The notes below the pieces were generated by a model. The model saw nothing but the letters and a program-made list of their open reading frames with translations, did not search any database and was not told the DNA's origin. Shown here piece by piece: positions 13,772 through 16,123 of a stretch of DNA of 64,000 nt; positions within the stretch are counted from its first letter, which is position 1, and each line of letters opens with the position of its first letter. Origin of the DNA: Trypanosoma brucei (lineage: Eukaryota); contig CM000207.1 in NCBI GenBank assembly GCA_000002445.1, positions 1 through 64,000 of the forward strand, written 5' to 3'. A program made the position numbers and the translations under genes.

Positions 13772-15635
13772 ATTATCCTCTCTTTTTCACCTTCTCTTGA
13801 GCAGCTGTTGCCTTGGCCTTGCAAAATAGAGGAGGAAGTTCTTAGCGTTGGTATTTCAGTGAACATTCGTTGATGGAAACTTGACTGATTGTCCACATGC
13901 GAGGTAACTTTGCTAGTAGTTGGGGCAGCTTTTTTCATGTCTGTGGTTTCCGGTGGTTACACCTGCAGCGCTACAGCTAATAAAGGCGGTAGTAGAAGAG
14001 TACATTCTAGCAGCTCGTTCTGTGTACTGTAGCGCGGGTGTAAGGCTCCGTCCAACCAGGCATTTCTAGTAGTGTTGTTACAGAAAATTTTTTTAGAATG
14101 CGCTTGGCTATGCTGTTCTTAGGCTGGACGTTTATGGAGTTCCATGGTTGTTGTTCACCGGTGTTCGGGTTACAGGCGACAAGCCACCTTTGCATTCGGT
14201 TTTCCTAGCAAACCTCTTTGCAGTGTCGCGCCGTAAGACGATCCTTGGTTCACGACTTAGCTGTTCCGCTGCGTAAGACCAGGAAGGATAAATTCTCCAC
14301 TGCTTTGGTTTGTTTCTCGCAGCCCTCTATTTTTTTCCTGCTTCAGCTACGATAGGAATCTCTTTTTTTTCACAAAGGCCTGTCCTGTTTAAGTTACGCC
14401 TGTATTCTGCTTCAGAAGGTCCATGGTGTTTTGGTTTAGGCTGTGTTCCGGTGCACTTAGAGCGTCCGCATAGTGCTTGATGATTTTGGCTATGATTGGT
14501 TCGCATACGCACGATGAAGTGCATTCGTTGTTTTTGTTCGTAGAAGTATGTGCCTTTTCCATTATTTTAGAGTAGAATAGAAACGAAATTGTAAGTGTTG
14601 AGTGTCACTTCATCTTTTTTTCATGGTTTTTTTGTTTAGGGGATAAGGTGAGTAACTTTTGGAGAGTCCATTGGAAACTTCTCTGTGCTTTGCCCCTTCT
14701 GCGTTAAGGATAAAGACTGTCCATTGAAAATATTAACCTAGACAGTGCGTGTAGGAAGAGAAGTGTCGTGTCTTCCAGCTTAGGTGACCTTTCTGCGATA
14801 CCTTGGTATTTCTCATTGTATTTTGTGGCTTAGTTTTCTTTTTTTTGTGAGGTGCCCTGTCATGGCGGGAAGAAGGCAAATTTTTCTGCTGCATTTATAA
14901 ATGAAGGTGCTATAGCGGTTACACCGCCGTCAGTTCCTCTTAGTTGTGCTTGTATAAGACTTATCGTGAGCTGGTGTGACGTAATCTATACGATAACTAC
15001 AGTTGAAGTAAACTTCAACTTTTTGGCGGATGTTTTGCCACATACGAAGCCGATGTGTTTGCCAGGTAATCTGCCGCCGTCATCGGCTATCGACGGAGAT
15101 GATTGCTGTAAAACCTCTATGTGTTTCTTTGATGGTTTCTTCTGCTGTGATAAAGCGACCGTCGTACATTTTTGCTGTCCTGCAACTTCTTTGTTTGCTT
15201 TCCTTAAATTTTCATAACAATTCTTCATTACCAAGTATGCTCAAACGAAGCTATTGCGCAGGTCAGTGTTGAGTTCGTGCCAGAAAATGGTTTGTTGCCA
15301 GGTGTGTTTGCCGAGGCATGGATCAGCAGGAGGAGATTGTATTTGATAAATCCTGCCACTTGTCGGCTCTGGTCTGCGTAGTCAATCGTTTTTACTCGTC
15401 AACCCTGTTTTGTGTTGTCTATTTTTGTTTATATTAACCTTCGAGCATATTTTTAGTTGCGTATGCTCCCTATAGTTTTTCTGATGTTCTACCAGAGCCA
15501 TAAAAATCGGAACAATCTCCTTTGCATCAATTTAATCGCCTTTTCAACTCATAAATTAAAACACGTTACCCGTATCTCCTTCCACACAGTAAAGTAAAAC
15601 CCCACATTCATTTGATAAACCGTTACTCACTTGAT

Positions 15636-15851
15636 GGATGATACTGCTGATGGCACGCTGGCAAATGCCCAGGGACCTACAAATGAAAGACGGTGTCCCA
15701 GCAAGACGCTGCTGATCCCTGTGCTGTATGATGCCGTAGCCGGAGCACAGCAGTGTTCCTCATGAAAGGAATGCTTCTGACTCTTGGCTTCTCCAGATGA
15801 GACGGGGTACTGGACCCTGGCACCACGTTGAGGCGGTCGGCATCGCCAGGG
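15636..15851 (-). mobile_element. RIME/ingi 5'-half fragment (~216 bp), flanked by 12-bp direct repeats
   Basis: Reverse complement matches the RIME-A/ingi 5' end CCCTGGCGATGCCGACCGCCTCAACGTGGTGCCAGGGTCCAGTACCCCG...GCCATCAGCAGTATCATCC. TACTCACTTGAT is present at 15624-15635 and again at 15852-15863. Confidence 0.8.
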
Positions 15852-16123
15852 TACTCACTTGATTTTTTTTTTTGGAATTTTCTTCGTGCCTTCGTGAGAG
15901 TTTCCCCCCACTGGCGCGGCCATCAACCATCACCGTAGAGCCCTGAGATGCTATCGATCTGGCGACTGTGGCAGAGTCTCCCTTTTTTATTCAGCCTAAC
16001 ACACCCTCTATAATTTTTGTTGTAGCTCCGCAGTTGAACGGAATACAGCAGATGGGGCGAGAAGCCCCCCACTCCGGACTCTCCAAAATATGTCAATTAG
16101 CAATCCTTTTGTTTTGTTTTTTG

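Follow-up and report, generated by a model that had tools for sequence, protein, structure and literature searches.

Retroposons of the ingi clade generate a target-site duplication of conserved size, 12 bp (PMC3820030). In Trypanosoma brucei, tandem ingi-clade elements with only the 12-bp duplication between them are frequent, and are attributed to independent insertions at the same position (PMC3820030). Tandems of this kind are described for Tbingi/TbRIME, and also for Tvingi/TvSIDER1 and L1Tc/NARTc (Bringaud et al. 2004, 2006, as summarised in PMC3820030). The 5' signature of these elements has been proposed as the feature recognised in short elements mobilised in trans (PMC3820030, discussion). 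Among short derivatives, NARTc of T. cruzi is a 0.26 kb non-autonomous element that arose from L1Tc by 3' deletion (PMC2323293). A BLAST map of ingi/RIME copies has been published for T. brucei TREU927, and in it the RHS target (GGGATCCC TACTGTTATACA) is found upstream of several elements (PMC4660242 Supplementary table 1).

The window considered here is a 64-kb stretch of T. brucei TREU927 chromosome 9 (bases 1-64000) within a VSG array, and it carries a composite ingi locus at 15624-21116 on the minus strand. The locus is rather probably a tandem of two ingi-clade copies, formed by two target-primed reverse transcription events at one 12-bp target (ATCAAGTGAGTA), which was then copied as a composite and lost its original flank on chromosome 9. 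A tandem layout is an already described feature of the ingi family, and the mildly unusual part is only the short partner, a 3'-truncated copy without poly(A) that nevertheless has a perfect duplication. No description of a poly(A)-less, 3'-truncated ingi insertion was found in the literature searched. The locus would serve as a worked example of how one ingi target is reused, how a composite spreads by segmental duplication, and how ingi copies act as recombination joints in VSG arrays.

Anatomy of the composite locus

The composite and its flanks comprise the following features (positions in the window):

15624..15635, minus strand: 12-bp target-site duplication, distal copy (ATCAAGTGAGTA in element orientation), directly after fragment nt 216, without poly(A)
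15636..15851, minus strand: ingi/RIME 5' fragment, nt 1-216, with the canonical +1 (CCCTGGCGATGCC) and the Pr77/79-bp signature, without 3' region or poly(A)
15852..15863, minus strand: 12-bp target-site duplication, middle copy, between the ingi1 poly(A) and the fragment +1
15864..15873, minus strand: ingi1 poly(A) tail, 10 A (11 counting the first A of the 12-mer)
15864..21116, minus strand: ingi1, a full-length (5253 bp) yet degenerate ingi, 97.5% identical to the second full-length copy, ingi2
21117..22500, plus strand: X, the ingi1 5' flank, a putative opposite-strand VSG pseudogene with its N-terminal end cut off by the ingi 5' end
13772..15623, minus strand: D, the 3' flank of the composite, unique in the window, upstream of the atypical VSG gene 12308-13771 and on the same strand as the fragment

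In element orientation the order is X, ingi1 nt 1-5243, A10, ATCAAGTGAGTA, ingi nt 1-216, ATCAAGTGAGTA and D, while the plus strand reads ccgt, TACTCACTTGAT, 216 bp, TACTCACTTGAT, tttttttttt and ggaattttcttcgtgcc. A repeat search and an alignment agree with the preliminary description in placing the 12-mer at 15624-15635 and 15852-15863, on either side of a 216-bp ingi/RIME 5' piece. They also agree that the second copy is followed directly by the minus-strand poly(A) of ingi1, seen as a run of 10 T at 15864-15873 (11 including the last T of the 12-mer). The duplications at the two ends of the fragment are identical at 12 of 12 positions, and TACTCACTTGAT occurs only at these two places in the 64 kb (both strands, at most one mismatch). 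Subtelomeres are repeat-rich and VSG arrays within them are hard to assemble, which could suggest a chance repeat or an assembly artefact. However, the chance that two fixed 12-nt positions agree is 4^-12 (about 6e-8, by our own arithmetic), and the same architecture is present at two loci that differ in sequence details, so that such an origin is scarcely credible.

The fragment (15636-15851) corresponds, in reverse complement, to ingi nt 1-216 and aligns without gaps from the canonical CCCTGGCGATGCC, with 94% identity to the 5' end of ingi1 (20901-21116) and 90% to that of ingi2 (50847-51062). The 216-bp block is found three times in the window, the two other copies being the 5' ends of the full-length minus-strand ingi elements. 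BLAST of ingi1 against the window returns only ingi1 itself, ingi2 (97.5%, 5237 columns) and the 216-bp block (94%), with no further ingi-homologous DNA beyond these three. The ingi-clade 5' signature (77-79 bp, CCCTGGCGATGCC) is present in the fragment, which aligns from nt 1 to both full ingi 5' ends. Homology ends exactly at nt 216, where the full ingi copies go on with GCACCAAGATG and the locus goes on with the 12-mer. Ingi1 carries both a poly(A) and the shared 3' region of ~250 bp (RIME-B); the fragment carries neither, nt 216 abutting the 12-mer. Nor does the fragment have the layout of a RIME (5' ~250 bp, 3' ~250 bp and poly(A)), only nt 1-216 being present. The fragment shows 13 differences from ingi1 nt 1-216, of which 11 are private in a comparison with both ingi1 and ingi2. 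Over the same 216 nt, ingi2 carries 10 private substitutions, and the divergence of the fragment does not settle its age.

The fragment retains the Pr77 promoter/ribozyme signature and is oriented toward the atypical VSG (12308-13771), 1.85 kb downstream on the same strand. A permissive Rfam scan of 15000-22000 returned no family, and the HDV-like ribozyme of the clade was undetected by Rfam. A candidate internal echo of ingi nt 30-56 at nt 189-215 did not exceed the 95th percentile of shuffled sequences and was discarded. A 2A-like self-processing motif (LLSGDVEENPGP), known for L1Tc/ingi, lies shortly after nt 216 in the N-terminal region of ingi, at 20854-20877 (minus strand); the ingi1 frame stops six codons after it.

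A copy that keeps its 5' end and loses its 3' end had been noted as unusual for a LINE. This is true of LINEs in general but overstated for TREU927, for which the published table has many 5'-intact, 3'-truncated BLAST rows, some of them partial alignments of longer elements (PMC4660242). On chromosomes 1, 2, 3 and 7, the same table contains several 5'-intact ingi pieces that end at ~nt 220-231 and have a common upstream sequence, GAAAATAAATTCCGATAGAGCTCACG...GCTGCACAC (PMC4660242). They have the appearance of a second 5'-only fragment that was multiplied by duplication and that ends near 216.

The chromosome 6 paralogue and the order of insertions

What is said here of a paralogue on chromosome 6 derives from the upstream 100-nt flanks and BLAST coordinates in the published table (PMC4660242 Supplementary table 1). 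The window locus is already in that table, mislabelled 'RIME A', as row NC_007282 15636-21112 (element 5-216, minus), whose coordinates coincide with those of the window and whose upstream sequence ends TCCGTTTCAAAGCCCC (PMC4660242). Each hit is entered twice (in chunk-relative and in absolute coordinates) and alignments are merged or split, which makes the 'RIME A' labels unreliable (PMC4660242). The chromosome 6 row, NC_007279 1484112-1489590 (element 1-216, minus), spans 5478, against 5476 for the chromosome 9 row, and its upstream 100 nt end GGCCGACTTAAATGCGGAGGGTTGAG ATCAAGTGAGTA (tail GGAGGGTTGAG ATCAAGTGAGTA) (PMC4660242). In another chromosome 6 row, 1484278-1484327, the upstream 100 nt consist of the ingi 3' end CACGAAGAAAATTCC followed by AAAAA and ATCAAGTGAGTA (PMC4660242). 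With the chromosome 6 upstream sequence (GGCCGACTTAAATGCGGAGGGTTGAG) termed U, the order given by these rows is U, 12-mer, ingi, A5, 12-mer and fragment, and the fragment is exactly 216 bp by the table coordinates (1,484,327-1,484,112). The rows stop at the fragment, and a third 12-mer and a D flank on chromosome 6 are a presumed part of the model. The tandem layout with a shared duplication is seen as (A)n, 12-mer, fragment and 12-mer in the window, and with its leftmost 12-mer, after non-ingi DNA, on chromosome 6.

Since the 12-mer follows non-ingi DNA on chromosome 6, it is host target DNA. Its alternative reading as part of the element consensus was rejected, as it is also absent from both full ingi copies, and the earlier view of the 12-mer as a target-site duplication rather than RIME sequence therefore stands. 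In the window, ingi1 has the 12-mer at its 3' side only. At its 5' end (21117..), where the preliminary description had not seen the 12-mer, the 12 nt are TCCGTTTCAAAG in minus-strand reading and differ from it; the 5' copy is found on the chromosome 6 paralogue. A search of the 64 kb found U missing from the window. JGI metagenome contigs scanned for the fragment/12-mer junction gave no match, and exact-protein look-ups of the two flanking VSGs and of the TREU927 database entry, aimed at orthologous or empty-site alleles, gave no contig.

A further chromosome 6 ingi in the table, whose 5' end is 1,521,661, shares its upstream sequence with the first (PMC4660242). The ingi copies at 1,489,590 and 1,521,661 are 32,071 bp apart and have an identical 100-nt upstream flank (U + 12-mer), but only the first is then followed by the 216-bp fragment in the table. 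The pair suggests that a 32-kb segment was duplicated or that duplicated targets were each hit once.

The two 216-bp copies, on chromosomes 6 and 9, share the same 12-mer and so trace to one insertion event. In its last 83 nt, the chromosome 6 ingi has 2 differences from ingi1, in addition to the length of its poly(A) (5-6 A). Together with the unlike poly(A) lengths (11 versus 6), these 2 differences could indicate that an ancestral U-12mer-fragment-12mer-D was copied to both chromosomes and that each copy was then hit independently by ingi. The high score of U + 12-mer as a target (given below) and the second U-12mer-ingi 32 kb off on chromosome 6 point the same way. However, slippage readily alters poly(A) length, 2 of 83 nt is ordinary divergence between paralogues, and a later loss of U-12mer on chromosome 9 would still be required. 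Independent hits of this kind, a variant of the best explanation with the same mechanism, are improbable, and the copying of one finished tandem to both loci is preferred.

The target quality of the candidate sites was scored with a weight matrix trained on 53 distinct published ingi/RIME 5' flanks, which are BLAST-derived and some of them paralogous. The conserved upstream pattern in the matrix consists of a G at -19 (41/53), together with a G at -25, T at -27/-26 and C at -1. The scores are:

Chromosome 6 U + 12-mer: 8.3, left out of training (training median 5.1), matched by 0.04% of random sequences
Poly(A) + 12-mer: -2.2, random-like
Fragment 3' end + 12-mer: -7.3, random-like
Ingi1 5' flank X: -4.0, random-like (training set minimum -5.6)

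The upstream endonuclease motif is thus carried by the chromosome 6 paralogue, the low-scoring flank now present in the window being a probable replacement. The score of X is only a weak fit to the idea that another ingi originally inserted at X. As only the U-side 12-mer scores as a target, it is the copy most plausibly used in both insertions. A later insertion there would displace the older one rightward, so that the fragment was probably inserted first and the full ingi second, given that the endonuclease reads the upstream motif.

The proposed series of events would begin with the ingi endonuclease recognising the motif upstream of the 12-bp target. In the first event, an RNA containing only ingi/RIME nt 1-216, either 3'-truncated or internally primed, would be reverse-transcribed from the nicked target without a poly(A), yielding U, 12-mer, nt 1-216, 12-mer and D. 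Since U and the left 12-mer would stay intact, the same site could be cut again and a full-length ingi inserted. The product of this second event would be U, 12-mer, ingi, (A)n, 12-mer, nt 1-216, 12-mer and D, which would be the form kept on chromosome 6. Segmental duplication within VSG arrays would then have placed the composite at two loci, on chromosomes 6 and 9. Finally, homologous recombination with another ingi would have replaced all DNA upstream of ingi +1 on chromosome 9, which would leave ingi1 abutting an unrelated, putative VSG pseudogene without a 5' duplication. The preliminary description had proposed the repeated use of one target site, which is the explanation given in the literature for such tandems (PMC3820030), and a recombination history, which is borne out by the absence from chromosome 9 of the left 12-mer kept on chromosome 6.

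Flanks and VSG context

The composite is bordered by two unrelated flanks. D, of which the window has no second copy (marker sequence ACGGTTTATCAAATGAATGTGGGG), lies upstream of a minus-strand VSG (12308-13771) with 100% identity to an atypical VSG of T. brucei brucei TREU927. X (21117-22500) has neither the 12-mer nor U and appears to be a VSG pseudogene on the plus strand that continues directly from the ingi 5' end and contains a few stops when translated in frame 1. This assignment is drawn from the reading frame and one PDB match, to the C-terminal domain of the ILTat 1.24 VSG (2jwh, E = 2.7e-6); a Pfam search of X returned no domain. X is followed by 70-bp repeats and then the next VSG cassette.

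The simplest account of these flanks is that the 5' flank on chromosome 9 was swapped by homologous recombination between the ingi of the composite and another ingi, since such an exchange would keep the exact element ends while the 5' flank changes. A sliding comparison of ingi1 with ingi2 revealed no clear mosaic breakpoint in ingi1, the differences being evenly spread. The other full-length copy, ingi2 (45820-51062, minus strand), is also without a target-site duplication (GTCCGCTCTTTC at the 3' flank versus TTGTACTATTTA at the 5' flank), which suggests that flank exchange at ingi copies is common in the array. Ingi2 begins with CTCAGG, not CCCTGG, and its short tail (A7) is immediately preceded by a 9-nt deletion (GAAAATTCC); this copy, too, has the look of a recombined or degenerate element.

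Several other features of the array were observed. The junction 21116/21117 coincides with a divergent strand switch: genes to its left (2351-3289 and 12308-13771) are on the minus strand, and the putative VSG pseudogene and the VSGs to its right (24885, 30291, 43485, 52253...) are on the plus strand. The strand switch at the ingi1 5' end could have been left by an inversion mediated by ingi. The chromosome 9 record opens (1-1615) with a long array of VSG-type '70-bp repeats' with a period of ~75 nt and runs of TAA/TTA triplets. Shorter copies of these repeats, some inverted, are found at 22596-22773 and 32040-32309, upstream of other VSG cassettes.

Origin of the short copy and comparison with described systems

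The start of the fragment at the canonical +1 is as expected for a cDNA that reached the 5' end of its RNA, and this precise start, combined with a perfect duplication of canonical length, points to target-primed reverse transcription to the end of the template. The 3' junction (CATCC/ATCAAG) has neither an A-run nor microhomology, which favours an origin by reverse transcription over one by deletion.

In a deletion scenario, two insertions, or unequal exchange between duplications, would first have produced a pair of complete tandem elements, and the distal copy would then have lost the stretch from nt 217 to its poly(A) end. Full tandem elements with a duplication between them are indeed common in T. 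brucei (PMC3820030), and subtelomeric arrays often suffer deletions. However, the right end of the deletion would have had to hit the poly(A)/12-mer boundary exactly (~1 in 5000), and CATCC/ATCAAG shares no bases with either parental side, although chromosomal end joining in T. brucei has been observed only in its microhomology-mediated form (5-20 bp), without non-homologous end joining (PMC3045614). The sole nearby similarity to ATCAAG is ACCAAG (ingi nt 219-224), and its use would leave GC (nt 217-218), which is absent; on the same ground, microhomology or internal priming at nt 216 was rejected. A tandem pair followed by internal deletion, the specific example put forward in the preliminary description, is accordingly quite improbable. 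The general direction of the earlier interpretation, that of target reuse and recombination, was right, and this example probably wrong.

Repair at the DNA level would likewise yield 12-mer, nt 1-216 and 12-mer without poly(A). Here, a break at the old target beside an existing ingi, made by the ingi endonuclease or arising from another source, would produce a 12-nt overhang that anneals to the other 12-mer copy. From there, 216 nt of the 5' end of that adjacent ingi would be copied from DNA, and the end would be rejoined to the second overhang. For T. brucei, gene conversion with microhomology on one side is on record (PMC3045614). However, the distal junction would still be without microhomology, and the cut would have to occur in the poly(A) + 12-mer context, which is random-like as a target. 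The 13 differences from ingi1 nt 1-216 (11 of them private) also speak against copying from the neighbouring element, though the 5' part of ingi1 may itself be foreign following recombination. Taken together, these points make a repair origin unlikely.

The preferred explanation of the short copy is that a poly(A)-less RNA, truncated at its 3' end, was reverse-transcribed, or that priming was template-independent. The step at which a truncated RNA is used reflects a single event, represented by two paralogous copies, and the stricter claim, that the 216-nt copy was generated by true retrotransposition from an RNA lacking both poly(A) and the ingi 3' region, is possible but somewhat doubtful. 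If this claim is correct, the copy bears on the template needs of the ingi reverse transcriptase. The ingi machinery would be able to take up a template via its 5' Pr77-containing region alone, and priming would be possible on a non-adenylated 3' end without base pairing to the target. The copy would then provide natural evidence for the 5' signature as a recognised feature in trans-mobilised short elements.

The composite resembles tandems of the Tbingi/TbRIME type in having two elements in the same orientation with one 12-bp duplication between them that recurs on the outer side, and in the conserved upstream motif that precedes the site, as seen on the chromosome 6 paralogue; the explanation by repeated insertion is also the same. 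In contrast to these tandems, the short partner is neither a RIME nor complete, consisting of nt 1-216 without a 3' region or poly(A), and the outer left duplication of the window copy is lost. As in the RHS genes of T. brucei, one fixed target has been hit repeatedly by ingi/RIME, but here the target is non-coding DNA in a VSG array, with no RHS domain nearby. Like NARTc, the fragment is a short derivative that keeps the 5' Pr77 signature while the coding and 3' regions of its parent are gone. However, NARTc has a poly(A) and forms a multi-copy active family, whereas the 216-bp piece is without an A-tail and represents one event. Endonuclease-independent LINE-1 insertions at DNA breaks, which Morrish et al. 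are said to have described in 2002, are reportedly 3'-truncated, without poly(A) and without target-site duplications. The fragment is similar to them in being 3'-truncated and without poly(A). An endonuclease-independent LINE insertion, for which no target-site duplication is expected, was nevertheless rejected, given the perfect 12-bp duplication found here. Unlike such LINE-1 insertions, the fragment has a perfect duplication of canonical length, and its insertion therefore looks endonuclease-dependent.
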